Shown: one piece after another, positions 17,703 through 47,822 of the stretch
Numbering within the stretch: position 1 is the stretch's first letter
How the letters are laid out: each line of letters begins with the position of its first letter
Assembly: GCA_964629815.1 (NCBI GenBank)
Contig: CAZVTA010000001.1
Coordinates: 118,357-182,356, forward strand
Direction: 5' to 3'
DNA length: 64,000 nucleotides
Source of the DNA: an uncultured Candidatus Saccharibacteria bacterium
Lineage (GTDB): Bacteria; Patescibacteriota; Saccharimonadia; Saccharimonadales; AWTP1-31
Program-made: the position numbers and the translations under genes
Notes under the pieces: generated by a model
Seen by the model: the letters and a program-made list of their open reading frames with translations, nothing else
Databases searched by the model: none
What the model was told of the DNA's origin: nothing

Positions 17703-18683
17703 TTACTTTTCCCAAGTGAAGTCTTTGTGGCCAAAATGCCCCCACTGGGCTGTTTTTTCGAACTGAGGTTTTTGTAGGTCGAGCCATTTAACAATGCCAC
17801 GAGGCGATAAGTCGTAGCCTTCGACAACTTTTTGCACGCCGTCTACAACCACGGTTGCTTCCAGTGGCTGGTCGTAGCCAATTGCATAAGCTAAGTAGCA
17901 ATATACTTCTTTGGCATTCTCTTTTTGTAAGTAGTCTATAGCTATTTTTCGCGCTGCATAGGCGGCAGAGCGGTCTACCTTGCTTGAGTCTTTGCCGCTA
18001 AAGCAGCCACCACCAATTGGGACGCTTGGGCCGTAGTTGTCTACAACCAGCTTGCGCCCGGTTAGGCCGGTGTCGGCTTCAAAGCCACCAATCTGCCAGT
18101 CACCCGCGGGGTTGATGTGTAAGCGAATTTCGTCGGTTGTTTTTGCAAGGGGTTCGCTTCTTAGCCATTCTCGAACACGAGCTTCAAGTTCGGCCTGCGG
18201 TGCGTTCTGAAAACTCGCTACTGCCGATTCAATAACCCCATCTTTCAGCGTTACTTGAGTTTTACCGTCGAAAGGCCATTTTTCGAAAATATATTGGTTG
18301 AGTTTGCGGCTTAGTACTACTTCGAGTGGTAATAGCTCGGGTGTGTCGTTGCAAGCATAGCCAACCATAATGCCTTGGTCGCCTGCTCCACCCGTATCAA
18401 CGCCCTGCGCAATCTCGGGGCTTTGCTTTACGAGCCGAACCTCTAGCTCTACATCGCCCGCAATGCGTTGTACAATTGGTGCAACATCGGGGTGGCCCGT
18501 GCTAGTAACTTCGCCCACTACAAATACCTTGCCGTGGCCGCCAACGGTTTCAACAGCTACACGGGCTTTGGGGTCTTGTACTAAATATGCATCCAAAATA
18601 GCGTCGGAAATTTGGTCGCAGAGTTTGTCGGGGTGCTTGGGCGAAACACTCTCGGCGGTTTTATAGGTTGTTTGTGCAGACAT
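17703..18683 (-). CDS. metK: S-adenosylmethionine synthetase (short form, 326 aa)
   Basis: AESVSPKHPDKLCDQISDAILDA and GGGCFSGKDSSKVDRSAAYAARKIA are MetK signatures. Confidence 0.9.
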   Translation of the reverse strand: MSAQTTYKTAESVSPKHPDKLCDQISDAILDAYLVQDPKARVAVETVGGHGKVFVVGEVTSTGHPDVAPIVQRIAGDVELEVRLVKQSPEIAQGVDTGGAGDQGIMVGYACNDTPELLPLEVVLSRKLNQYIFEKWPFDGKTQVTLKDGVIESAVASFQNAPQAELEARVREWLRSEPLAKTTDEIRLHINPAGDWQIGGFEADTGLTGRKLVVDNYGPSVPIGGGCFSGKDSSKVDRSAAYAARKIAIDYLQKENAKEVYCYLAYAIGYDQPLEATVVVDGVQKVVEGYDLSPRGIVKWLDLQKPQFEKTAQWGHFGHKDFTWEK

Positions 18684-18840
18684 AAAAAAACTCCTTTCTG
18701 TCTACACCGCTGGGTCGAGTCAGAAGGAGCATGCCTTGCGATATCTTCCCCTTGCGGGCTGAACGTAGCACCGTACCACGAATGGTTGGTTGCTGGTGGG
18801 TCGACGGGTCAGATCCCTCGCCACACTCTTGATACTTAAA
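18684..18840 (-). ncRNA. SAM-I (S-box) riboswitch with terminator/SD-sequestering expression platform
   Basis: The minus strand reads GUAUCAAGAGUGUGGCGAGGGAUCUGACCCG...CAGCAACC...GGUGCUACGUUCAGCCCGC...GGAAGAUAUCG, which matches conserved SAM-I blocks. It is followed by the hairpin CUCCUUCUG...CAGAAAGGAG + U7 that contains the metK RBS, immediately 5' of the metK ATG. Confidence 0.65.
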
Positions 18841-18886
18841 TTGTTAATGCCTACCTATGGTAGCATTGTTCTGCGCGTCAGCAAAA

Positions 18887-19402
18887 TTATTCGAAGTTAA
18901 AGAATGCTTCGGCTTGTTGTGCGAGCTGGTCACGGATTTCGCTCATTCTGTAGCCGAGATCAAGTTTTACTGTTTGACTATTACTATCAAGGAGAACTGA
19001 ACCTAACTCATTTTTTAGGGTATTGTGGCCAATTGCAAGAACGGTGTCGTCGGGACGCTTAAGGAATATGCCGGTGCCGCATTCAATCTGTGGTTCTCTG
19101 TCTGTGCTACGCGTGACGATACGAGAGACCGCTCCGTTAGCCCAAGACGGCTCATAATCGTATGCAGTGAGTTTTCCATAACCACCAACAAAAATTTCTT
19201 CGACGGGATGAGACTCTGATTGCTTGCCTTTGTTAAAGGTTGCAACAAGAAGTCTACCAAGAGTGTGCTGAGCCCTCAAAGTGTCGGTTGCGGGTGTAAA
19301 GTAGCCTGCTAACACATCTGCAAAGCGTGGATCTACCAGTAAGACCTTTTGTGAACGATCGTCAGTTGTCGGTCGGTATGCATCAAACTCGGGGGAATTC
19401 AT
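18887..19402 (-). CDS. hypothetical protein
   Basis: 171 aa, no recognised motif. Co-oriented with the next two genes. Confidence 0.4.
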   Translation of the reverse strand: MNSPEFDAYRPTTDDRSQKVLLVDPRFADVLAGYFTPATDTLRAQHTLGRLLVATFNKGKQSESHPVEEIFVGGYGKLTAYDYEPSWANGAVSRIVTRSTDREPQIECGTGIFLKRPDDTVLAIGHNTLKNELGSVLLDSNSQTVKLDLGYRMSEIRDQLAQQAEAFFNFE

Positions 19403-19448
19403 GATAGTTAATTATAGCACAAAATAGTTAAAACGTCTATTCTATAAC

Positions 19449-20165
19449 TTAATCTGTAGCTTGTTGCTGTTGGTATGTCTGGTACTGGCGGTATGCAGCT
19501 TTTGCTCTGCGTAAATCTGCTGCTTTTTCTACTGGCATTACCATGCCCGCTAAAGAAAGGCTTCCAAGAAAATAGCCTTGCATTAGTTCGCCAAATTGCG
19601 CGCCTGGTTTGTTATGAAACAGCTCGCGCGCCCATTGCCAATGCTCGTCGAAATTTACACCAAAGTGGCGAATCCAGAACCCGCCACCAATTACAGAACC
19701 CGCAAGTGCAAGGCAGCCCATGCAGCCAGTACTGTGCTCTGCTAATGTGTTATCTACTTTTTCGGTTCCGTATTCTTCAATAATCTTTTGGCCACCACCA
19801 CTTAGTTCGTATCGGTCGATTCCATCTTCGCCCGGTTTTGTTACAAGTAATTTTGCATCGTATGCAAGCTTAGTCGATATATCTTGGCCGATGACGTCAA
19901 TCATTTCATTTGGCAAACGTTTTAAGTAGGGACCAAACGGTATGCCGTTGCGGTGAGTGCCGTAATGTTCTGACTCTGGTGGGCTGTACAATGTGCTGAC
20001 AATGCGCGATGCAACAACCGCATAGCCAACTCTGCGGCATAGCTGGCTATCTTCATAGTACGGGTTTATGTTGCCGGCAAGGGGGTGTTTGCGTACTGCT
20101 TCGAGTATGGTGCCATCGAACACGGCGGTAATTTGGTCGATTGGCTGAGCTTTTTCAAAATCCAC
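19449..20165 (-). CDS. hypothetical protein
   Basis: 238 aa, Gln-rich C-terminus, no recognised motif. Confidence 0.4.
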   Translation of the reverse strand: MDFEKAQPIDQITAVFDGTILEAVRKHPLAGNINPYYEDSQLCRRVGYAVVASRIVSTLYSPPESEHYGTHRNGIPFGPYLKRLPNEMIDVIGQDISTKLAYDAKLLVTKPGEDGIDRYELSGGGQKIIEEYGTEKVDNTLAEHSTGCMGCLALAGSVIGGGFWIRHFGVNFDEHWQWARELFHNKPGAQFGELMQGYFLGSLSLAGMVMPVEKAADLRRAKAAYRQYQTYQQQQATD

Positions 20166-20233
20166 TGCGTATACCTAATTTATTGCTTGCCCAATTGTAT
20201 CAATCCCCTGCCCGATAACCAAAAGCACGTCGT

Positions 20234-20590
20234 TCAGGTGAGTTTGGTGTATTTGAGGTTTTTGCCTTTGGCTTTCTCGACGGGGTATTTTTGTTCGTTG
20301 ATACGCATTTTACGCTCGAACTCGGCCGGAATATCTATGTCGAGATCGTGGCACAACAGTAGTGTGCTGTAGAGAACATCCATAAGCTCGTCTGCGACGG
20401 CTTGTTTGTTGGTACGTACGTGCTCTTCGATTTGCTGAGGCGTCTTCCACTTAAACTCGTCAAGCAGCTCGGCAGCCTCGCAGATGATGGATATAGCAGT
20501 GTCTTTGGGGTTATGGAATTGTTTCCAGTCGCGCTCGTCGCGGAAGCCTACTATACGTGCCTGCAGTTTTTTGATGTCGCTCATAACCAC
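20234..20590 (-). CDS. MazG-like nucleotide pyrophosphohydrolase (small all-alpha NTP-PPase)
   Basis: 118 aa. EAAELLDEFKWK...ELMDVLYSTLLL matches the MazG/NTP-PPase EExxE motif pattern. Confidence 0.65.
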   Translation of the reverse strand: MVMSDIKKLQARIVGFRDERDWKQFHNPKDTAISIICEAAELLDEFKWKTPQQIEEHVRTNKQAVADELMDVLYSTLLLCHDLDIDIPAEFERKMRINEQKYPVEKAKGKNLKYTKLT

Positions 20591-20629
20591 AGTATAACCC
20601 AGCGACCAAAACTGCTGTATAGTGTAGGC

Positions 20630-20884
20630 ATGACCGAGCGTTGGATTGGTGAGATAGATAACGTTTTTGACGACGGTGACTTTAATGCAACCGTTGGCCC
20701 AACATTTGATGAACGACCTTGGGTAGTACAGGTGCCGTCACGAAATGTTACTGAAACAGAACGCTCAAAGATTGTTCCTTGCAGGCGATTTTATTGTGAT
20801 ATCGAATTTGTGGATGAAGTGCTTCGTACCGTACGCGGCATAGAGTTTATTGAACCAGATTCGTTACCGTCTAGCACAGTCTAG
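20630..20884 (+). CDS. possible small hypothetical protein
   Basis: This is the downstream in-frame part of track ORF 20402-20884 that does not overlap the MazG gene. There is no SD, so support is weak. Confidence 0.2.
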   Translation: MTERWIGEIDNVFDDGDFNATVGPTFDERPWVVQVPSRNVTETERSKIVPCRRFYCDIEFVDEVLRTVRGIEFIEPDSLPSSTV

Positions 20885-20889
20885 CTCTT

Positions 20890-21558
20890 CTATTGGCGGT
20901 TTTTGCGGCGCTTGGTTGGGAGTAGTTTGCGAAGCTTGCTTCTGAACAAGAAAGCCGTGCCAGCAATGGCCAAGGCTGCGAGGACTACGATGAGTACAAG
21001 CGGTAGTGAGTCCTCTTCTTTTGAGGTTTCTTCGATTTTAGCAGGCTGAGCTGTGTCGGCTGTTGTTGTGGTGTTGCTGGTGGTTGTGGATGTGTCTGAG
21101 CTGGTTGACGTAGATGGTGTGTTTGCAGTAGGCGTAGTGGTAGTAGCCTTCTTGGCAGTGGAACTGCTGTTTGATGACGGGCTGCTGGTAGTAGATTTGA
21201 CGATTGGGTTGATGATAATTTTGCTAGCAACTGGCGTGGAACCTATCGGGCAGTCGTTTACAAACACAGGGTCAGTGTAGTTAATGGGTACTGGTGTGAT
21301 GGTAATTGTTTGCTGACTGGTAACAGTGCCAAGCGAAAATGTCTTGATGTAGTTTGTCGAGCCACGACTACCTGGACCGATTTCTCCAGAAATGCCTGCC
21401 CCGCTGACTGTTTGCGATACCACGGGGTCTTGATTGCTAATCGTTATGTTAGATGAGGCATCGGATTCAACCGATAGCGTAACGGTTTGAGCACTATTAA
21501 CGACACTTTTACAGTCGGTGTTGGCGTCGATAATTGCCGTAAGGCTAGTCGCATGCAC
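20890..21558 (-). CDS. Ser/Thr-rich surface protein with a C-terminal TM anchor and basic tail; the N-terminal signal peptide is encoded out of frame upstream
   Basis: The track ORF starts at a GTG. Upstream in the same frame there is no stop until after KLLTLTLLIALIAGNTPQVHA (a signal-peptide-like stretch), but the only ATG (21617-21615) is in another frame and is followed by an A5 tract. See the frameshift finding. Confidence 0.55.
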   Translation of the reverse strand: MHATSLTAIIDANTDCKSVVNSAQTVTLSVESDASSNITISNQDPVVSQTVSGAGISGEIGPGSRGSTNYIKTFSLGTVTSQQTITITPVPINYTDPVFVNDCPIGSTPVASKIIINPIVKSTTSSPSSNSSSTAKKATTTTPTANTPSTSTSSDTSTTTSNTTTTADTAQPAKIEETSKEEDSLPLVLIVVLAALAIAGTAFLFRSKLRKLLPTKRRKNRQ

Positions 21559-21684
21559 CTGTGGCGTATTTCCGGCAATTAGAGCAATAAGGAGTGTAAG
21601 GGTCAGTAGTTTTTCATGTTTTTGTGTCCTTAATTATGCTGCAATTGTAGCATAATCGAACATCTGTAAACTAGCGCTCGGTGT

Positions 21685-23085
21685 TTACTTGGCTGGCTTA
21701 GTGATGCCACCGTAGTGGTATATATCGCGGTTAGATACCACGACTTCCTTGCGTGGTAAGCCTTCGCATGGGTCGGTGGGTTTTGCGGCAGGCGCATGTG
21801 GTTTGTCGGCTGGGCCGTCGTCGCAGCTTTTAATAACTACACCGGCGCCAACGAGTACGATTGGTGCAAGGATCCACGGCAAGAAGCGTCGCTTCTTTTT
21901 CTCGGGTTTCTCTGTTGGCTCTTCGACTGGCTCTTCTGATTCTTCGATTGGTTCTGGACCTGCTTGGTCTGCAGGAAGTGGTTCGTCGTCTCCTTCACTG
22001 TCGTCTGGTTCTCCGTCTACGCCACCAGCACCTGAGCCTGTTCCGCCACCTACTCCTGCTCTGCTGCCGGCCGTTGAAGCATTACGTCGAATTTCCGAGA
22101 TGTTACGCATAAACAAGAAACCACCAGCAGCAATAGTGCCGAAAGTTACACCACCAATAACTATTGGAAGCGCGTATGGCACCGTAGCCTCAAAAGATTC
22201 TACTTCGGTACGGTGCTCGGTTACAGTTTTAATAGCAACAATACATACTTCTTCTTCCGTTGGTTTGCTACCTGGTTCGCCCTCTATGGTACGCGTTGCA
22301 ACAATGGTTTGAATAGTGCCGCGTTGACTATCGAGGAGTATATCGAACAAAGCAGCAACGGTAGGTGGTAGCTGATTTCTATCATCGTTGTAAGCTTTTA
22401 CGAGTGCCTCGGCGTTTGCATAGCCAAACTGGTCTGCAAGACCTTGAATAATGTGTACCTGGTTATCTTTTAAAAAACCTTCGCGGCCGGGGACTGCTAC
22501 AACCGCAATGTCCTCTAGCTTATTGGCCGCTTTGGTTTTTTCGATAGTGTCAATAACTGCGTCACGGCGGGTGTCGGCTAGTTCTATGTTCTTGGTACTT
22601 GGCGTTTGTAAGCCGGCGCTGCCGTCTGTGCTGTCGTCTTCTGCCGAGCTCAAGCCCTGTACTTCTATAGATACGCTATCCCAACCGTGCGTCTTGAGAG
22701 TAATGGCGGTTTTAAGCATTGCTTCGGCATCTTCTTGGCTAAATTCGCGTGCAACTGCATCCTCTGCAAACTCACGCGCATAGGGGCTTTTTACATCTGT
22801 AATGCGTGTAATCTGCTCTGTTTCGTCTGCTGTTGGCTCGCTGCCATCAATCGTAGTTGACTGTACATAAGGTTCGCCAGCTGGTTCGCGAGAAATAATA
22901 CGAGATGTTTTAACTTTTTCTGCAAAGGGGTTGAGGTCGCCTATCTCTACACGTGGTCCATGGCCTTCGTGCTCTGGCGTGTACTCAATATATAGGTGTA
23001 ATAGTGCGCTTGCAGCAACGGTAGCCGCAAGTGTTCCGCGGAATATACGGTCGCCGAGAGCTTGCGTTTCGGGGTTACGTGACAT
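21685..23085 (-). CDS. hypothetical membrane protein with an acidic low-complexity linker
   Basis: 466 aa. An N-terminal TM helix, a central TM helix (IVIGGVTFGTIAAGGFLF), then a G/E/D/P-rich tract and a further TM helix. Confidence 0.45.
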   Translation of the reverse strand: MSRNPETQALGDRIFRGTLAATVAASALLHLYIEYTPEHEGHGPRVEIGDLNPFAEKVKTSRIISREPAGEPYVQSTTIDGSEPTADETEQITRITDVKSPYAREFAEDAVAREFSQEDAEAMLKTAITLKTHGWDSVSIEVQGLSSAEDDSTDGSAGLQTPSTKNIELADTRRDAVIDTIEKTKAANKLEDIAVVAVPGREGFLKDNQVHIIQGLADQFGYANAEALVKAYNDDRNQLPPTVAALFDILLDSQRGTIQTIVATRTIEGEPGSKPTEEEVCIVAIKTVTEHRTEVESFEATVPYALPIVIGGVTFGTIAAGGFLFMRNISEIRRNASTAGSRAGVGGGTGSGAGGVDGEPDDSEGDDEPLPADQAGPEPIEESEEPVEEPTEKPEKKKRRFLPWILAPIVLVGAGVVIKSCDDGPADKPHAPAAKPTDPCEGLPRKEVVVSNRDIYHYGGITKPAK

Positions 23086-23127
23086 AATATGCTTATTTTA
23101 GCATAATAAGAATAAAAAAGCAATACT

Positions 23128-23793
23128 TTATTGCTCTGTTGGAGCTGTGTCAACAGATACGATACTGTCTTGATAGATACTAACTGAAAGAGTTGTTGTT
23201 CGATCAACCTTATCCCAAAGATCACGGTCAACCTCTTGGCGTCCGGTAATTTGTTTTGGTTTGCTGTCTGGGTCGTCTGGATCTGCTGGTTTTGTGGCAG
23301 TTATCCATAAGAAATAGCGTGTCGTTCGGTTGGCGACTGCGTCTTTTGGTGCACGGGCTTCGCAGCCAGTGTTGCGAGAAGGTGGCGCCTTGAATTCGCG
23401 TCTTGGAAAAACAGTCGGACATTCAAGAACAGTCACCTCTTCATCGAGCGTGTAGTCGTATTCTGTTCTGTACTCTGCCTCGCAGTGCGAAGTTTCATCA
23501 GATAGGCATGTCGACCAAAAGCATTCGGTGTCGTCTATGCTTATGTCGAACGGACCATCTGTTACTTCTTTGCATCCGTCAAACTCGCGATGAGTGCGCA
23601 CATGATAGGCGTTGAATGGCAGGTATGTTTCGTTCTGGTGCTCTACTGGCCTCGTAGCGGTAAATTCAGTTTCGATGCCTTGCGAAAAGCCAACCGCATG
23701 CCCTTCTACGCTTATTTCTGATTCCCCACATCCACCCGCAATCAGTGAAGCGCTTAGGCCTGTTGCGGCGGCAATGGTGCGTAGTTTGTTCAT
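23128..23793 (-). CDS. Cys-rich putative lipoprotein
   Basis: MNKLRTIAAATGLSASLIAGGCG gives a signal peptide and lipobox. Multiple Cys residues in the mature part. Confidence 0.55.
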   Translation of the reverse strand: MNKLRTIAAATGLSASLIAGGCGESEISVEGHAVGFSQGIETEFTATRPVEHQNETYLPFNAYHVRTHREFDGCKEVTDGPFDISIDDTECFWSTCLSDETSHCEAEYRTEYDYTLDEEVTVLECPTVFPRREFKAPPSRNTGCEARAPKDAVANRTTRYFLWITATKPADPDDPDSKPKQITGRQEVDRDLWDKVDRTTTLSVSIYQDSIVSVDTAPTEQ

Positions 23794-23878
23794 TAAAACA
23801 AAGATTACAATATTACGAATAATAAGTAAATATTGCTCGTTTGACCAAAGCGCTATATATCAGATAAGATAAAGCAAT

Positions 23879-25426
23879 ATGGCAACACTTAAAGACTACC
23901 GCGACGAGCGACTCCGCAAACTAGGCGAACTGAAAGAACTCGGCATAAATCCCTACCCTGCAAAAGCCACGCGTACGTACACCAACCAAACCATTGTCGA
24001 CGACTTTAAAAGGCTTGAAGGTCAGTCGGCCACTGTTGTGGGGCGAATTGTAAACATTCGTAAGTTTGGCAAAATTGCATTTATTGTATTGCGTGATGCC
24101 ACGGGTAGCCTGCAATTGTTTTTGAAAGAAGGCGTGGTTACTGACCTCGATGCAAATAAAGGAACACTTGGTATAGATCAGTTGCCGTTGCTCGACAGTG
24201 GTGATTTTATTCAAGCAAGTGGTACGGTTATAAAAACCCAAACGGGAGAAATATCGGTCGAAGTACAAGAACTTCGCTTGCTAACCAAAGCACTGCGCCC
24301 CCTGCCAAGCGTGCAAGATGGCTTTACGAATAAGGAAGAACGTCTGCGCAGACGCTATGTTGATACCAATGTGAACGTAGATGTCTACGAGCGATTTTTA
24401 CGCCGAAGCGCCTTCTGGCAAGCAACCAGACAGTGTCTTATCGACGAAGGTTTTGTCGAGATTAATATTCCTGTACTTGAAACCACCACTGGCGGAGCCG
24501 ATGCCAACCCGTTTGTAACGCATATGGATGCGCTCAATCAAGATTTTTACCTGCGCATTAGCCACGAATTGCCACTTAAGCGATTGCTTGTAGGTGGCTA
24601 CGAAAAGGTATTCGATATTGGCCCACGCTTCCGTAACGAAAACTATAGCGACGAGCATTTACCAGAGCACGTTGCTATGGAGTGGTACTGGGCATATGCC
24701 GACTGGGAAATGGGTATGCAGTTTACGCAAAAGTTGGTTCGGACTGTAGCCGACAAGACCTGGGGTAGTCGTACCTTTACGCTGGCAAATGGCATGAAGG
24801 TAGATCTAGGCAAAGACGGCGAAGATTGGCCACGGATTAGCTTTGTTGACACCATTAAAGAAAAGTACGGGCTCGATGTATTTGCCTGTACACTTGATGA
24901 AGTAAAAGCACAGCTGAAAAAACACAATCTGGAAGTAGAAAAAAGCGAAAACCGCTCGCGTGGAATCGATAAGCTCTGGAAAAAAGTCCGCACCACTATA
25001 GCGGGGCCGGCATTCTTGGTCGACATCCCTACATTCTTGCAGCCCCTTGCAAAAACCCAAGCAGATAACCCAGAGTTAACCGAGCAGTTTAATCTGCTAC
25101 TTGGTGGCAGTGAGTTATGCAAGGCGTATTCTGAGCTGAACGACCCAATTGACCAGTTGAACAGATTTAAAGAACAGCAAGCCATGCGCGATGCGGGCGA
25201 CGACGAAGCCATGATGATGGATATCGACTTTGTTGAGGCGCTCGAATATGCTATGCCGCCTGCCTGTGGTTTTGGGTATTCAGAGCGACTATTTTGGTAT
25301 CTCGAAGGTGTTACTGCGCGCGAAGGTGTGGTCTTTCCGCAATTGCGCCGCGAAATAGACGAAGTTACCAAAACTATTTATCCTGAACTGTACGGCGAAA
25401 AAAAAGCTGCAACGAAGGAATCCTAA
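23879..25426 (+). CDS. lysS: lysyl-tRNA synthetase (class II)
   Basis: 515 aa. An OB-fold N-domain (GRIVNIRKFGKIAFIVLRD) and class II motifs (FRNEN...HLPEH, ELCKAYSELNDP, GFGYSERL). Confidence 0.92.
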   Translation: MATLKDYRDERLRKLGELKELGINPYPAKATRTYTNQTIVDDFKRLEGQSATVVGRIVNIRKFGKIAFIVLRDATGSLQLFLKEGVVTDLDANKGTLGIDQLPLLDSGDFIQASGTVIKTQTGEISVEVQELRLLTKALRPLPSVQDGFTNKEERLRRRYVDTNVNVDVYERFLRRSAFWQATRQCLIDEGFVEINIPVLETTTGGADANPFVTHMDALNQDFYLRISHELPLKRLLVGGYEKVFDIGPRFRNENYSDEHLPEHVAMEWYWAYADWEMGMQFTQKLVRTVADKTWGSRTFTLANGMKVDLGKDGEDWPRISFVDTIKEKYGLDVFACTLDEVKAQLKKHNLEVEKSENRSRGIDKLWKKVRTTIAGPAFLVDIPTFLQPLAKTQADNPELTEQFNLLLGGSELCKAYSELNDPIDQLNRFKEQQAMRDAGDDEAMMMDIDFVEALEYAMPPACGFGYSERLFWYLEGVTAREGVVFPQLRREIDEVTKTIYPELYGEKKAATKES

Positions 25427-32247: not shown

Positions 32248-32382
32248 TTCAAAGTTGATGCTGGCACAAATTTAAGTCGAAGAGCCGTACCCTTCCCAGA
32301 AAAATACAAAAACAGCCCACAAAACGTGAACTGCTTTTGTATGGCTCCGGGGAAAGGATTCGAACCTTCGACCTAGTGGTTA

Positions 32383-32922
32383 CACTTGTTCGTTATTTTC
32401 ATAACGTGTGGACTATATCATCATCCATAAACGGATGTTGGGCGCTGATGAACGATTATTGTTAGGCTCACGTTCTAGTCTCTGAACCTTCCAAACTCCT
32501 TTATCCTAAGCTTGGCTTGGCTGCGGATTACCTTATCTTTCGACGTAGGCTTCCCGACAATTCACCCAATTTTCACTACTTAGTTTCCCAAGTAGGCTGC
32601 TTATAGCCTGCGTGAATTTCCCGATGACAGTTTGCACACAGAAGCACACATTTGTCTGCCTCTGCTTTATTCTTTTCCCAAGATCTTGTAAGTCCACTAG
32701 AGGATATACCAAAATCTTTTTGAGATGCATCTTTGTGGTGAAGATCGAGTGCATTAATACACTCATCGTAACCGCAGATGATGCATGCACCGCCTTTGTA
32801 GTCAACAAGCATTTGTCGGACTTTTTGGCGACGCTTAGCCACTGCCTTCTTGAGATATTCAGCGCGATCGGCATAACTTCGTCTATCTGGCATACACATA
32901 ATTGTATGCCAAAGTGTCGACT
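32383..32922 (-). mobile_element. group I intron (about 540 nt) in a tRNA anticodon loop, carrying an HNH ORF
   Basis: Contains the conserved group I core elements P (AUUGUCGGGAAGCC), Q (UAAUCCGCAGCCAAGCC), R (GGUUCAGAGACUAGAACG) and S (GAUAUAGUCCACACG). The 5' exon ends in U and the intron ends in G. Confidence 0.8.
32576..32899 (-). CDS. HNH homing endonuclease encoded in the intron
   Basis: CIICGYDEC...LDLHHKD...CVLLCANCHREIHAG is an HNH motif with two CxxC pairs. Its start codon lies in the loop of a 9-bp hairpin (UGGCAUACA/UGUAUGCCA). Confidence 0.8.
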   Translation of the reverse strand: MCMPDRRSYADRAEYLKKAVAKRRQKVRQMLVDYKGGACIICGYDECINALDLHHKDASQKDFGISSSGLTRSWEKNKAEADKCVLLCANCHREIHAGYKQPTWETK

Positions 32923-33035
32923 ACAGCCACCCGCTCTACCGCTGAGCTACCCCGGAATATGCAAATAAGGTTCTTTGCGAAATACGCAACCGCCAAATTA
33001 TATCTAAAATAACCCCTTATGGCAAGCGGTGCGAT

Positions 33036-39730: not shown

Positions 39731-40582
39731 ATGCTAAACTCTCTTCTAAAATTTGCAAATACCGATGGACCACACATTGCTTTAAGTCCGGAAAAGATTA
39801 CCGAAGTCGGTGGATTCACGATTAGTAATTCGATTATTTATGGATCGCTGTGTGCGCTATTGCTTGCCGTGCTACTTATTGTGGCGCGTTTTAAGATTCA
39901 CCGAAAAGCAGCCCGAGGATTCGCACAAATTGTAGAGATTTTGGTTGAATTTATTATTGGCCTCGTCGAAGGTCCGCTTGGTTCGCGCAAGAAAGCAGTA
40001 AAGTACGCCCCAATTTTTGGGACGTTTTTCTTGTTTATTATCTTTAGCAACCTCATGGGCTTATTGCCGATTGTTGGTCCTGGGGTGTTTGCGCGCACTG
40101 CCGAGGGCAATACACCGCTGTTCCGTCCATTTACTGCAGATCTTAATGGAACAATCGCTATGGCTGCCATCGCTATTATTACGATCCAGTATTTATCAAT
40201 TAAAGAGTCTGGGTTTCTTGGTCATTTAAAACACTACTTTACCGACAAGCCATTCAACCCGATCAATATGTTTATCGGAATCTTGGAGGTCTTCGGCGAG
40301 TTTACACGTATGATCAGCCTAAGCCTTCGACTATTCCTTAATACTGCCGTAGGAGAGATTCTTATTAGTGTCTTTGCTTACATAGGTAAAGATTTTCGTT
40401 CGTTTACTATTCTGCCTGTTGCCATGTTCGAGATGCTGGTAGCAGGAATTCAGGCGTACGTATTTACTGTACTGTGCGCAACGTATCTCGGGTTGGCCAT
40501 TAGCCATGGCCATCATGACGAAGAACATCCTGTCCACGAAGCCGACCCAGTGGTCGCGCAGCTGGAAGGTGATGTTACATAA
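39731..40582 (+). CDS. atpB: F0F1 ATP synthase subunit a
   Basis: MISLSLRLFLNTAVGE (conserved Arg helix). Multi-TM. Confidence 0.85.
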   Translation: MLNSLLKFANTDGPHIALSPEKITEVGGFTISNSIIYGSLCALLLAVLLIVARFKIHRKAARGFAQIVEILVEFIIGLVEGPLGSRKKAVKYAPIFGTFFLFIIFSNLMGLLPIVGPGVFARTAEGNTPLFRPFTADLNGTIAMAAIAIITIQYLSIKESGFLGHLKHYFTDKPFNPINMFIGILEVFGEFTRMISLSLRLFLNTAVGEILISVFAYIGKDFRSFTILPVAMFEMLVAGIQAYVFTVLCATYLGLAISHGHHDEEHPVHEADPVVAQLEGDVT

Positions 40583-40654
40583 GCCATTACAAAATATCCG
40601 CGAGATAGTTCGCTAAGCGGGCACTCGTGGTACTAAGGATAAAAAGGAGTACAA

Positions 40655-40921
40655 ATGGCACCACAATTAACACGATTTGCAGCAGAGGCTGCAGAAGTGG
40701 CACAAAGAGGCGGTTGGAACCCAACTGCAAGTAAAGCTTTCATGCTTGGTATTGCGTTTGCAGCAGCAGCGCTTGGCCTGGGTATGGTAGGTGCAAACTA
40801 CATGAAAGCATTGGGTCGTAACCCAGAAGCTGGTAAGGCTGCCGGCCAAATCGTTATTATCGCAGCCATGATCGAGGTTACAGCGCTTCTCGCCTTCCTC
40901 GGTGCGTTAATCGTTAAATAA
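40655..40921 (+). CDS. atpE: F0F1 ATP synthase subunit c
   Basis: Two-helix hairpin with LGLGMVGANYMKALGRNPEA...IIAAMIEVTALLAF (conserved carboxylate E). Confidence 0.9.
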   Translation: MAPQLTRFAAEAAEVAQRGGWNPTASKAFMLGIAFAAAALGLGMVGANYMKALGRNPEAGKAAGQIVIIAAMIEVTALLAFLGALIVK

Positions 40922-40929
40922 AGGTATAT

Positions 40930-41484
40930 ATGCTCGAGCTTATTCAATTTGTTACATTCGCGTCGACAGCGGCAGAAGCCGAAGAAAAATCTGGTATTGC
41001 CGTATTGGGTATTGATCCAAAAGTAATTCTTTTGCAGGCAGGAACATTCTTGCTCTTGTTCTTTATTCTCAAAAAGTTTGCGCTAGAAAACATCGTGAAG
41101 ACGCTCGAGCAACGCCGAAAAACTATCGACAAAGGTGTTGAGTTGGGTTTGTCTATGCAGGCCCAGAAACGAGAGTTCGATGAAGACCTCAAAAAACTGC
41201 ATCATCAGGCTCGTGCGCAAGCCGATAAGATTATCGCCGAAGCTCATCAAGAAGCCGGTACGATTATCAAAGATGGCGAAGCAGCTGCCGCTAAGAAAGT
41301 TGATAGCATGCTTGCCGATGCGCAGGCGCGTATCGACCGTGAAATTACTTCGGCTCGTGAAGGTTTGCGTAATGAAATGCTTGCGTTGGTAAGTGAAGCA
41401 ACCGAAGTAATCCTAGAAGAAAAAATCGACGCCCAAAAAGACAAAGGTCTTATTGAGCGAGCATTGGCACGGGTAAAGGGTTAA
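40930..41484 (+). CDS. atpF: F0F1 ATP synthase subunit b
   Basis: An N-terminal TM helix followed by a long charged coiled coil. Operon position. Confidence 0.75.
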   Translation: MLELIQFVTFASTAAEAEEKSGIAVLGIDPKVILLQAGTFLLLFFILKKFALENIVKTLEQRRKTIDKGVELGLSMQAQKREFDEDLKKLHHQARAQADKIIAEAHQEAGTIIKDGEAAAAKKVDSMLADAQARIDREITSAREGLRNEMLALVSEATEVILEEKIDAQKDKGLIERALARVKG

Positions 41485-41485
41485 T

Positions 41486-41881
41486 ATGGCCAAGCCTAGC
41501 GTTCGTACTCTCGCAGAAGTGATGCTCAGTCGTATTGATGCGGGTGATTCATCGGCTGCAGTTGTAGAGCGCATGGCGGCGTATTTGGTTGCTGAGCGGC
41601 GTACCGCCGAAGCACCGGCAATTATTCGTGCGCTCGACCGGTTGCTGCTTGAAAAGCGCCATACACTGAATCTGACGGTTACGTCGCGAACATCAGTCGA
41701 TACTGCGCAGTTGAATGCAATCAAAGAGCTATTTTTAGCCCAGACACAAGCAAAACATGTACACATAGAAACCAAACAAGATTCGTCTGTAATTGGCGGT
41801 GTGTTGGTTGAGTCAGCCGACCACCGACTCGATTTGACCGTACGCCGGCAATTACAACGACTAAAAGGTGTGAAGAGATAA
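41486..41881 (+). CDS. atpH: F0F1 ATP synthase subunit delta (short, 131 aa)
   Basis: C-terminal [24 protein letters not shown]. Operon position. Confidence 0.65.
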
Positions 41882-41895
41882 CAGGAGTACTATAT

Positions 41896-43422
41896 ATGGC
41901 ACAAGTAAGTATTAAAGACCTGAGTGCAGATATTCGAAAAGCCATCGATGCACTCAAAGTAAGCCCCGACGTAGAAACGGTCGGTATTGTAACGCGTATC
42001 GGTGACGGTATTGCATGGATATACGGGCTGTCTAACTGTGGTTATAACGAAATGATCGAAATTGAAACCAGTTCGGGCGTGGTTCCGGCTTTTGCGCTGA
42101 ACCTTATGGACGGCGAAATCGGTGCAGTACTCATGGACGAAGACGTAAAAGTGCGCGCTGGCGACCGAGCTAAACTAACGGGCCGCGTTATGGAGGTTCC
42201 TGTTGGCGAAGAGTTGGTTGGTCGTGTGGTTGATCCGCTTGGCCGTCCGCTCGACGACAAAGGACCAATTAAAACCAAGCATACCGGTCTTGTAGAGCGC
42301 CCTGCTCCGGGAGTGTTAGATCGAAAAAGCGTGCACGAACCACTCATGACTGGTCTTATGGGTATTGATGCCATGGTTCCGATTGGCCGTGGTCAGCGTG
42401 AGTTGATTATCGGTGATCGTCAGACAGGTAAGACAGCCGTTGCGATCGACACCATGATCAACCAATATCGCCAAAAAACTGGGGTTATCAACATCTATGT
42501 TGCGGTTGGCCAGAAGATGAGCAAAGTCTCGCGCATTATCGAGCGCCTAAAGCGCGAAGGTGTCATGGATCAGACTATCGTAGTTGCCACGGGCGCATCA
42601 GACCCTGCATCACTACAGTATCTTGCACCATATGCCGGTGCTGCCATGGGCGAATACTTCCGCGATAATGGCAAACATGCACTTATTATCTATGACGACC
42701 TTTCAAAGCATGCTGTTGCTTACCGACAAATGTCTTTGCTCCTTCGTCGCCCACCAGGTCGCGAAGCGTATCCGGGCGATGTTTTCTACTTGCACTCGCG
42801 CTTGCTCGAGCGCGCAGCTAAAATGAGCGACGCCAAAGGTGCTGGTAGTTTGACTGCCCTACCGATTATCGAGACGCAAGCGGGCGATATTAGTGCCTAT
42901 ATTCCAACCAACGTTATTTCGATTACCGACGGTCAGATCTTTATGGAAACCAACCTGTTCTATCAGGGTATTCGACCAGCGGTATCTGTAGGTCTTAGTG
43001 TTTCGCGTGTGGGTGGTAGTGCCCAGACTAAAGCCGTAAAGAGCGTGGCGGGTAGCTTGCGTCTGGACCTGGCACAGTTCCGTGAACTAGCTGCCTTTGC
43101 ACAGTTTAGTACCGACCTCGACCCAGAAACAAAGTCAAAGATTGAACGCGGCCAGCGCCTTACCGAGCTCCTAAAACAACCACAGTACAGCCCTTTGAGT
43201 GTGTGGGAACAAACAGCTTCGCTGTTAGCTGCCACAGAGGGTGCTTTTGACACGGTGCCGGTTGCAAAAATCAAAGAAGCCCAGAGTGCGCTTCTGCATG
43301 AACTGCATGCGCAGCACCGTAAAGCCATGGACGAGCTCAATAAGGGCGACAAGCCAACCGATGCAATTAAAGAAGCAATTCTTAGTGTTGCTAAAGGCAT
43401 CGCCGAAGGACTCGAGGGCTAA
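41896..43422 (+). CDS. atpA: F0F1 ATP synthase subunit alpha
   Basis: P-loop [18 protein letters not shown]. 508 aa. Confidence 0.95.
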
Positions 43423-43426
43423 TTAT

Positions 43427-43891
43427 ATGCCTCGAAGAGATTATTTAGGCGAAGCCCATGGCCAGAGGCAGATTTTTGCTGCTGGAATAAAAGAAGGTCA
43501 ACGATTGGGGCGTGAAAGAGCGGATGCTGCTCATCATATCAGTTGTGCCGATGCGTATATTATGGGAGAGAAAGAATTTGTTAAGGATGATGGTAGGGGT
43601 GGCTATCGAAGATGGGGTAATGCTTTGTTTGTGGCGCTTGGATTTGACCTTTATAGTAGTTTAAGAAATCACATTGGAACCGTAGAGTTTGAAGAGCTTG
43701 AAGCTCGATTAGACGTGGTTATTGATTTTGTAGTTCAGGCGGCTTTGGCGGTTGAGCGTGGTGAGATAAAGCCAACACGAGGACAGCGTCATGCAGGAGA
43801 AACAGCAGAAACATTTCCGGTACCGACTGCAGAAGTTCTTGCTCGCTTAGGATTTGAGGCTCAGCCAGCAGTTGGGGATGTAGATGGCTAG
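43427..43891 (+). CDS. hypothetical protein inserted between atpA and atpG
   Basis: 154 aa (MPRRDYLGEAHGQR...). It starts 4 nt after the atpA stop and its stop overlaps the atpG start by 8 nt. No recognised domain. Confidence 0.5.
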   Translation: MPRRDYLGEAHGQRQIFAAGIKEGQRLGRERADAAHHISCADAYIMGEKEFVKDDGRGGYRRWGNALFVALGFDLYSSLRNHIGTVEFEELEARLDVVIDFVVQAALAVERGEIKPTRGQRHAGETAETFPVPTAEVLARLGFEAQPAVGDVDG

Positions 43892-44753
43892 TCGACAGCA
43901 GCTTAAAACACGCATTGGCTCGGTTAAAAATACCAAGCAAATTACCAAGGCTATGGAGCTGGTTAGTGCTAGTAAAATGCGCCGTGCCCAAGAGCTTGCT
44001 AATCGGAGCCGCGAATATCGAAATATGGCACGGCATATTCTGCTGCGACTCCGTGAATTGACCGACGTATCGAAACACCCGTTGTATGTGCAGCGTCCTG
44101 TAAACACGCGGCTACATATTGTAGTAACCAGCAACCGCGGGCTGGCTGGTGCGTATAACAGCAACGTACTGCGCCGCCTCACGACCGAACTGCAGGCCGA
44201 TAAAGACGCGGGTATTGCAAGCAAGGTTATTGTGGTTGGTAAACAAGGTGCAAAGTTTATTGTTCGGTTTGATGATGTTGAAGTATTAGCCGTCTATGCC
44301 GACTTCCCTGACCACCCGTCGGCCAACGATATTCGCCCAATTATGGAATCAGTCAAAGAAGCGTTTACAACTGGAGCAGTCGATGCGGTTGACGTGCTTT
44401 ATACCGACTACAAGTCAAGCATCAATCAAGAAGTAACCGCAGAACGAATTTTACCTGCTGCACACAGCGATACTGAAATTGAATCGGTTGAAGTTGTTGA
44501 TGTTGAGTTTGAGCCGTCGCCACAAACTGTGCTTAATGCCGTTACCGAACGACTTATCGAAGCACAGTTATCGCAGGCATTTTTAGAGTCGAGTGCCAGC
44601 GAACAGAGTATGCGCATGATGGCCATGAAGAGTGCAACCGACAATGCCAGCGACCTGATAGACGACCTAACACTTGCTTTTAACACAGCGCGCCAAGCAG
44701 CAATTACACAAGAACTCGCAGAAATTACCGGTGGTGTGGAGGCGATAAAATGA
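43884..44753 (+). CDS. atpG: F0F1 ATP synthase subunit gamma
   Basis: MASRQQLKTRIGSVKNTKQITKAMELVSASKMRRAQE. Confidence 0.9.
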   Translation: MASRQQLKTRIGSVKNTKQITKAMELVSASKMRRAQELANRSREYRNMARHILLRLRELTDVSKHPLYVQRPVNTRLHIVVTSNRGLAGAYNSNVLRRLTTELQADKDAGIASKVIVVGKQGAKFIVRFDDVEVLAVYADFPDHPSANDIRPIMESVKEAFTTGAVDAVDVLYTDYKSSINQEVTAERILPAAHSDTEIESVEVVDVEFEPSPQTVLNAVTERLIEAQLSQAFLESSASEQSMRMMAMKSATDNASDLIDDLTLAFNTARQAAITQELAEITGGVEAIK

Positions 44754-45043
44754 GCGGGGTGCATGTAACTGGCCAGGTAGGCGCTGATATTGAAGCATTG
44801 GTTGGAGATGCTAAAGCGGGATATGCAGAGGCAATTGACAAGTTGGCATCTGGGTACGTTTCTACTGTAGAAGTTCGTACAGGTCGGTTTGGTGGTTTTC
44901 GTGGTGCAGAAGTGGTCGTCGATGAGACTGCTAGGCAAAACGCAATTTCGTTGATTGAAGCTATGATAGGAAGTATTGTTACAAAAGCATACCATTCTGG
45001 TCGCCAAGCAGAGAGCCTTGGTCGTGCGGAGGAAGCAAAATGA
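44750..45043 (+). CDS. hypothetical protein (97 aa) inserted after atpG
   Basis: ATGA overlap with the atpG stop. Gly/Ala-rich, no recognised domain. Confidence 0.45.
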   Translation: MSGVHVTGQVGADIEALVGDAKAGYAEAIDKLASGYVSTVEVRTGRFGGFRGAEVVVDETARQNAISLIEAMIGSIVTKAYHSGRQAESLGRAEEAK

Positions 45044-45530
45044 GCCAGCAAGAACTTGGTTTTCCGGACTACGTAAGTCTCGAACGTTACCCACACGAGC
45101 CGATTGTTAAGGACATGGCCATAGACCTTGTGACTATTGCCGAACAAAAAAGCAGCCGGCTACCCCGCCGAGTACGTAAAGCATTTCATAACAATAAAGA
45201 TCTAATCGTCAAAGGTGCGCAGTGGTCAACGACAATCTTTGTAACAGGACAATTTGAGTACGAGTCCGACTTGCAACAGCCGGAACTGTTTAGTGAAGTT
45301 CATGCCGACGCGTTGAATGAACGTGTGCTAAGAGGCGCTCAGTATGTGGGTGCAGCAATAATGCACGACGTAACACGGACTATGCCGTTTCGTTATCGCT
45401 ATAATCCGATCGTTCGTATTGATGATAAAAGAATGTCAGTAGCAGATTGGGCCGAGAACGTATGGGCACCAAACTATACCAAACGTTTTGTGATGGCCGC
45501 AACAATGCATGATGCTCGGGAGATGCAGTA

Positions 45531-45531
<1 letters not shown>
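45040..45531 (+). CDS. hypothetical protein (163 aa)
   Basis: ATGA overlap with the upstream ORF. No recognised domain. Confidence 0.45.
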
Positions 45532-47579
<2,048 letters not shown>

Positions 47580-47580
<1 letters not shown>

Positions 47581-47822
47581 TGGGCGGCGGTGTTACAGGC
47601 TATGGTAGTGACGAACAGCCAAGAATTGGTGTAGGTTTTGACGGCTTGCAACCTGGTTGGGCACAAGATCATGTTGAGCTTCGCGCAGCCTTCTCAGACT
47701 GGCTAACAGGAAAATATCCAGAAGCGCGCGTATTGGGTGATGTGGTGGATGCGCGTAAAGCGGCTGCTGAACTTGGGGAACTTGCTATCTCGGATGCAGC
47801 CGAAGGATTAAACAATGCTTAG
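47580..47822 (+). CDS. hypothetical protein (80 aa) inserted after atpD
   Basis: TAATG overlap with the atpD stop. No recognised domain. Confidence 0.4.

Follow-up and report, generated by a model that had tools for sequence, protein, structure and literature searches.

In the stretch of Saccharibacteria DNA analysed here (64 kb, hereafter the window), a minus-strand gene (20890-21617) that would encode an exported surface protein is separated from its start codon by a one-base frame break at a run of five adenines. The cause that fits best is also the simplest and was absent from the earlier note on this DNA, namely a plain loss of function through a recent deletion, fixed or in the majority, in an accessory gene that is dispensable. 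We consider it probable that this recent one-base deletion created a null allele of a lineage-specific surface gene, and that the GTG start assigned to the gene is an annotation artefact. This account builds on direct observations of the anatomy of the start region, of homology that continues across the break, of intact relatives and of the agreement of two assemblies.

The start region and the repaired protein

In the ORF list and in two public gene calls, the gene appears as a 222-aa ORF (20890-21558) starting at GTG 21558. The earlier note had observed that this ORF opens without a signal peptide, that a signal-peptide stretch devoid of a start codon lies open in the same frame upstream of the GTG, and that an ATG (21617-21615) sits one frame off, directly followed by five A (21614-21610); all three observations were borne out by the sequence and the ORF check. 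The long frame is open from 21633, immediately after a TAA (21636-21634), and reads LRTQKHEKLLTLTLLIALIAGNTPQVHA↓TSLTA... (the arrow marks the cleavage site). As translated from 21633 on (LRTQKHEKLLTLTLLIALIAGNTPQVHATSLTA…), this neighbouring frame holds no ATG, GTG or TTG before GTG 21558. The orphan ATG, in turn, opens a mini-ORF of five codons, ATG AAA AAC TAC TGA (MKNY, then stop; 21603-21617, stop codon 21605-21603, minus strand), within which the A5 run (21610-21614; T5 on the plus strand) is the putative site of the one-base deletion.

The frame is restored by a run of A6 or A3, i.e., by adding one A, as the note had proposed, or by removing two, and either change yields a 242-aa protein. 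Its N-terminus is MK(K)LLTLTLLIALIAGNTPQVHA↓TS..., and the whole start reads MKKLLTLTLLIALIAGNTPQVHA↓TSLTAIID…. By hydropathy and homology, the start-less segment LLTLTLLIALIAGNTPQVHA (21550-21609, minus) is a signal-peptide remnant with a hydrophobic core and a V-H-A cleavage motif. The annotated GTG (21558-21556) falls inside this remnant and encodes Val21 of the 242-aa protein, which is the Val of V-H-A. While the premature stop follows closely behind the lesion, the 238 codons beyond it are open and free of any further lesion, and they align with the family profile over their full length (hmm positions 12-262).

Sequence reading also places a Shine-Dalgarno (SD) motif, AAGGA (21627-21631, minus), 9 nt 5' of the ATG. 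Comparable motifs occur at 20 of 46 other ATG/GTG starts in the window; GTG 21558 has none. Further upstream, a promoter-like region (21644-21670, minus) was identified by eye, made up of TTTACA (21670-21665), a 15-nt spacer and an extended -10 element, TGcTACAAT (21652-21644). It sits in the 67-nt gap 3' of the upstream gene, whose stop codon is at 21687-21685. A consensus promoter scan of the region did not flag this TTTACA/TGcTACAAT pair, because the scanner's spacer rule is 16-18 nt and the pair has 15.

The repaired 242-aa product falls into five parts: a signal peptide, a two-Cys domain, a stalk, a transmembrane (TM) helix and a Lys/Arg tail. Its Sec signal peptide begins with MKK, continues into the hydrophobic core (up to 2.93 in an 11-residue hydropathy window) and ends in V-H-A; in the unrepaired sequence, the n-region and the Met are missing. 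Signal-peptidase processing is predicted to leave the N-terminus TSLTAIIDANTDCK, behind which alignments and AlphaFold2 point to a mature extracellular domain (residues 24-140; 21199-21549, minus) with two invariant Cys and a predicted seven-strand beta-sandwich, containing the peptide TFSLGTVTSQQTITITPVPINYTDPVFVNDCPIGSTPVASK. AlphaFold2 modeled this domain (~115 residues) at a pLDDT of 70-80, with helices at both ends of the protein and the beta-sandwich between them. The domain is followed by a 64-residue stalk (residues 141-204; 21007-21198, minus), Ser/Thr-rich (57%) and predicted to be disordered, and then by a C-terminal segment (20890-21006, minus) comprising the predicted TM helix LPLVLIVVLAALAIAGTAFLF (21006-20944), a Lys/Arg-rich cytoplasmic tail and a TAG stop (20892-20890). 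Judged by these sequence features, the repaired protein would be a Sec-exported type I membrane surface protein.

Pfam assigned the protein to no family; sub-threshold matches to CD1107-like, Plasmodium Vir and TMEM154 domains lay in low-complexity sequence and were rejected as compositional. A fold search with the AlphaFold model returned only weak, generic matches to cupredoxin-like sandwiches (TM ~0.25). An identity as a cupredoxin was rejected as well, the family having no conserved His/Met/Cys set of copper ligands beyond the two Cys.

Relatives and genomic setting

An exhaustive profile search of 1.84 billion representatives retrieved 39 proteins, counted as representatives at the 50% identity level (e.g., P0002, P0003, P0004 and P0017), and the family is therefore small; a word-indexed search found three homologues only, at 41-50% identity. 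All its members are unnamed and lack both a Pfam domain and a known function. The mature domains of the relatives share 36-50% identity, with invariant C36 and C123 and the motifs VVxQ..SG.G and NxCP..STP, and the cleavage region is conserved across the family as (V/A)-H/x-A↓(T/D)-S-L. The relatives thus resemble the window copy in their homologous mature domain, architecture and cleavage region, whereas the window copy is cut off from its start codon. An in-frame signal peptide is present as called in 33 of the 38 family sequences that reach 150 aa, and P0026 adds one after correction of its start (~34/38). We had considered P0026 as a second signal-less member and rejected it: it was called from an internal ATG, and an in-frame ATG upstream gives an intact MTSRRYKSISLPVFISAVFLYLVFGYSSAKA. 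Its locus (L086 1307-2386, JGI 3300014499) has a mis-called start and no lesion.

The most similar signal peptide is that of P0017 (…AHA↓TSLA), an intact relative whose gene begins ATG-AAAAAA-TAC and whose identity to the window gene is only 47%. In a BLASTP comparison with P0017, both proteins align from their residue 9 on, a point 17 residues upstream of the GTG, and the family HMM alignment likewise begins there. The GTG itself aligns with an internal Val/Ala of the relatives' cleavage motif. Homology thus continues across the break in the register of the ATG, indicating that the start-less stretch is a real signal peptide and not a chance open frame.

Two family loci were found to be disrupted in other ways. 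In P0024 (L085 1372-2139, JGI 3300043411, contig Ga0451708_0000241), a gene starting ATG-A7, the signal peptide reads MKKTRTFVLALGLAFSIFTLSYTGRASA-VS and is followed by an in-frame TAA two codons past the cleavage site, after which the mature domain resumes in the same frame; gene callers split this locus into genes of 30 and 212 aa. P0030 (183 aa; L088 1-642, ENA ERZ28593807 scaffold_47833) has neither a signal peptide nor the beginning of the domain. Upstream of it lies AT-rich, non-coding-looking DNA, 90 nt from the contig end, and P0030 is either a 5'-truncated remnant or an edge effect of assembly. Searching a genome collection with the family alignment yielded no match, the same search of a metagenome collection yielded only another copy of P0002, and the HMM found no second family copy in the window.

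The gene lies in a block that includes five neighbours (18887-23793) and is missing beside LysRS in 80 of 80 related Saccharimonadales species; this absence from the syntenic position marks it as a lineage-specific accessory gene. The organism is an uncultured Saccharimonadales bacterium (Saccharibacteria/TM7), whose LysRS is at best 83% identical to that of any species representative, and the base composition of the block is unremarkable. The two genes upstream of the target (21685-23793, minus) encode lineage-specific envelope proteins with no Pfam match. One of them, 466 aa long, contains three hydrophobic segments as well as a region rich in Gly and acidic residues; an exact look-up aimed at other strains gave no record for it. 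The other (221 aa) has an N-terminus of the lipoprotein type (…LSASLIAGGC…). The target and these two genes make up a small surface-gene cluster absent from the 80 related species.

Several further features of the window were recorded. The S-adenosylmethionine synthetase gene (17703-18683, minus) is immediately preceded by a SAM-I riboswitch (18738-18838, 50.7 bits), the standard arrangement. On the same strand, a group I intron interrupts a tRNA gene (32343-32956) that ARAGORN misses in the raw sequence. The tRNA's 5' exon runs from 32956 (TCCGGGGTAGCTCAGCGG…), its 3' exon ends near 32343 (…GGTTCGAATCCTTTCCCCGGAGCCA), and the Intron_gpI match in Rfam, at 98.9 bits, covers 32390-32651. An ORF located between the intron core and the 5' exon contains an HNH motif (…CANCHREIH…) and probably encodes a homing endonuclease. 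When spliced artificially after a scan of splice points, the tRNA folds, tentatively, as tRNA-Thr(GGT).

The F-type ATP synthase operon (39731-47822, plus) contains extra ORFs without a Pfam match, one in the ~460-nt gap 3' of atpA (43422-43884) and two (45040-45531 and 45531-46175) between a 289-aa ORF (43884-44753) and a 475-aa ORF (46153-47580), which by position and size we take to be the gamma and beta subunits. As for translation starts, 26 of the 46 gene starts examined show no SD motif (e.g., 2267, 9055, 19402, 27058, 33548, 34381 and 62661), and several of these carry, 6-9 nt 5' of the ATG, a -10-like box (TACAAT, TATAAT or TATACT), suggesting that leaderless mRNAs are common in this genome.

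Origin of the frame break

The central claim of the earlier note, that a one-base frame error displaced the signal peptide and that the GTG is not the real start, stands. Neither of the two causes it proposed comes out as the best: sequencing or assembly error is disfavoured because a second assembly has the same A5 and no gene is split among the ORF pairs tested, and phase variation in the usual sense is unsupported because the tract has five bases, 201 tracts like it occur in the window and no in-frame allele is public.

According to the null-allele reading, the gene would encode a member of a small, unnamed family of Saccharibacteria/Patescibacteria type I surface proteins. Its ancestral start would have been ATG-AAAAAA (Met-Lys-Lys), and the sampled population would have lost one A (A6 to A5) in what was presumably a biological event. 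Ribosomes loading at the SD-served ATG would then make Met-Lys-Asn-Tyr and stop, leaving the remaining 238 codons, i.e., the signal-peptide core and the mature protein, out of frame and with no usable start, while the gene caller would have settled on GTG codon 21 for want of a better one. A product started at this GTG would have no export signal, and neither its synthesis nor its function is likely, so that no exported protein would be expected. Back-mutation from A5 to A6 could restore the gene, at a rate that may lie only little above that of ordinary mutation.

The in-frame state can be reconstructed from the homologues, and one indel restores MKKLL…. Since the promoter, the SD and the downstream frame are otherwise intact, the lesion is probably recent. 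In kind, it appears to match the inlA null alleles of Listeria monocytogenes, in which A7 has become A6. Several points weigh against a null allele. An intact promoter, SD and 238 codons are also expected of a functional, switchable or recoded gene; a minority A6 subpopulation may exist, both assemblies probably being from one sample; and the ancestral A6 would be taken over from P0017, which is related at only the 47% identity given above.

We consider it unlikely that the A5 is an artefact, i.e., a homopolymer miscall in the deposited consensus of a genome that truly has A6 and an intact gene. Such an error is suggested by the position of the break at a homopolymer, by its being exactly one base short in an otherwise intact gene, and by the source, a metagenome-assembled genome. 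However, a Logan contig (L001, SRR16481183), assembled independently and on a k-mer basis, matches window positions 18372-24558 at 100.000% over 6,187 of 6,187 nt with 0 gaps and shows the same ATG-A5-CTACTG, an agreement that requires accurate reads. The two assemblies, probably made from one sample, may share reads, so a systematic error could be common to both; a literature search for the run SRR16481183 gave no match. Both short-read and HiFi chemistry read runs of five A reliably, with margin to spare.

The homopolymers of the window likewise argue against a miscall. They number 201 A5/T5, 87 A6/T6, 22 A7/T7 and 3 A8/T8, about 330 runs of at least five bases in all, and the length of the A5 is not statistically unusual among them. 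A platform prone to miscalls would break the longer tracts first, yet the A6-A8/T6-T8 runs that were checked show no frame break. Nearly all runs of at least five bases fall within long open frames; where a run does come near the end of a frame, no switch of frame occurs at it. Moreover, when 20 ORFs from overlapping or abutting same-strand pairs were compared with Pfam, every match ran end-to-end within one ORF, 7 of the ORFs having no match; this check for broken genes covers the tested pairs only, of ~80 genes in the window. As no other broken gene came to light in these tests despite the ~330 homopolymers, a sequencing error is improbable.

Somewhat less likely still is reversible slipped-strand on/off switching at the 5' poly(A), whereby the sampled population would be mostly OFF (A5), and ON (A6) cells would arise and be favoured whenever the protein benefits an episymbiont, e.g., by helping it attach to its host or avoid phages. 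The tract does occupy the classic site, immediately behind the start codon of a gene for a surface protein, where a change of one unit flips the frame; the expression signals and the downstream frame are all intact, and the relative P0017 is in the A6, ON configuration. In addition, gene starts are enriched in 5' poly(A) tracts, and the A6 and A7 alleles of inlA interconvert in nature (PMC2831843).

InlA offers the closest comparison. In L. monocytogenes, A7 is in frame and A6 leads to an 8-aa peptide (Orsi, Bowen & Wiedmann 2010, PMC2831843). As in the window gene, the protein bears a signal peptide and is anchored at the surface, the short poly(A) lies a few bases past the start codon, and loss of one A cuts the product down to a few residues and silences the gene, leaving the rest intact and reversion by one A possible. 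The proteins themselves are unrelated, InlA being an LRR internalin with LPXTG and ours a beta-sandwich with a TM anchor, and the tract of the window gene is one to two bases shorter (A5 with a probable A6, as opposed to A6/A7). Furthermore, both Listeria alleles are known from many isolates and their rates have been measured, at ~5.5e-7 for A6 to A7 and ~4e-8 for A7 to A6, the shortest poly(A/T) case measured (PMC2831843), whereas here the OFF allele alone was seen, in one sample.

A similar likeness and a similar difference hold for the contingency loci (Mycoplasma hominis vaa, Campylobacter coli flhA and the poly-G/C genes of Neisseria, Haemophilus and Helicobacter), where the tract likewise lies in the 5' part of the coding sequence of a gene for a surface protein and its length sets the frame. 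These loci are polymorphic in every population examined, unlike the present five bases, which are ordinary for the genome and read A5 in both assemblies (probably one sample). Documented poly(A/T) switches alternate between A7 and A8 (vaa) or T7 and T8 (flhA), at rates of ~1e-5 to 1e-3, and classical homopolymer contingency tracts of at least 7 bases switch at ~1e-5 to 1e-2, according to figures quoted in the same paper (PMC2831843). The window tract falls short of the at least 7 bases of documented poly(A/T) switches, and A5/A6 is shorter than every such switch cited.

Among ~15 billion public proteins, we found no ON allele or length variant (the 242-aa form), and the 90% cluster consists of one member on two contigs; titles and abstracts gave no literature match for tract-based switching in the Saccharibacteria phylum. 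The other broken family members also speak against switching, disrupted as they are by a nonsense codon (L085) and a truncation (L088) and not at tracts; lesions of these other types point to ordinary decay of a dispensable gene rather than to a tract switch.

It is very improbable that recoding or non-canonical initiation yields the full protein after all, through a slip of Lys-tRNA by +2 (or -1) on AAAAA or through reinitiation at the CUG at 21606-21604. Lys-tRNA can re-pair at three registers on A5, the CUGA places a near-cognate CUG over the UGA that ends the mini-ORF, and the SD 12 nt upstream of the run is loosely reminiscent of the dnaX arrangement. However, the site reads G AAA AAC and offers no canonical X XXY YYZ heptamer, so that only the unusual +2 slip would work, and the arrangement is not conserved, the relatives having their signal peptide in frame with both the ATG and the mature domain. 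For the CUG, the SD is too far off to be of use (20 nt), and a signal peptide begun there would miss its basic n-region. A fold of 21650-21530 gave no sign of a stimulatory RNA structure (-19.3 kcal/mol, z = -0.80, 39 of 200 shuffles equally good), and Rfam had no match at the frameshift site. We give equally little credence to the annotation as it stands, by which GTG 21558, the first canonical start of the long frame and so called in two public records, would yield a 222-aa tail-anchored, cytoplasm-facing protein lacking a signal peptide, given that this GTG has no SD and occupies the position of the relatives' cleavage motif, that the family is otherwise exported, and that two conserved Cys and a Ser/Thr stalk are typical of extracellular proteins.

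Implications for annotation and surface variation

The main value of the finding lies in annotation, as the deposited 222-aa GTG protein would, on present evidence, be better recorded as a frameshifted gene or pseudogene of a 242-aa exported surface protein. A null allele produced by a frameshift in a short 5' poly(A) is a well-known kind of lesion, as in inlA, and the case described here is a new instance in an uncharacterised family.

A mixture of A5 and A6, should the reads contain one, would be a first sign, in this phylum, of surface variation based on tracts. It is doubtful that a slow, inlA-like reversible A5/A6 switch controls the display of this lineage-specific protein in an episymbiotic Saccharibacterium; if it did, the repeated N-terminal disruption (the frameshift, the TAA of L085 and the truncation of L088) would reflect recurrent selection against surface display, e.g., for escape from phages or host responses, and very short 5' poly(A) tracts would be low-gear contingency sites in small-genome Patescibacteria.

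The analysis also defines a small, uncharacterised Saccharibacteria/Patescibacteria surface family, built from a signal peptide, a two-Cys beta-sandwich, a Ser/Thr stalk and a TM anchor. The genes of this family are accessory and in some cases occur in inactivated form, which bears on the surface variation of episymbionts.
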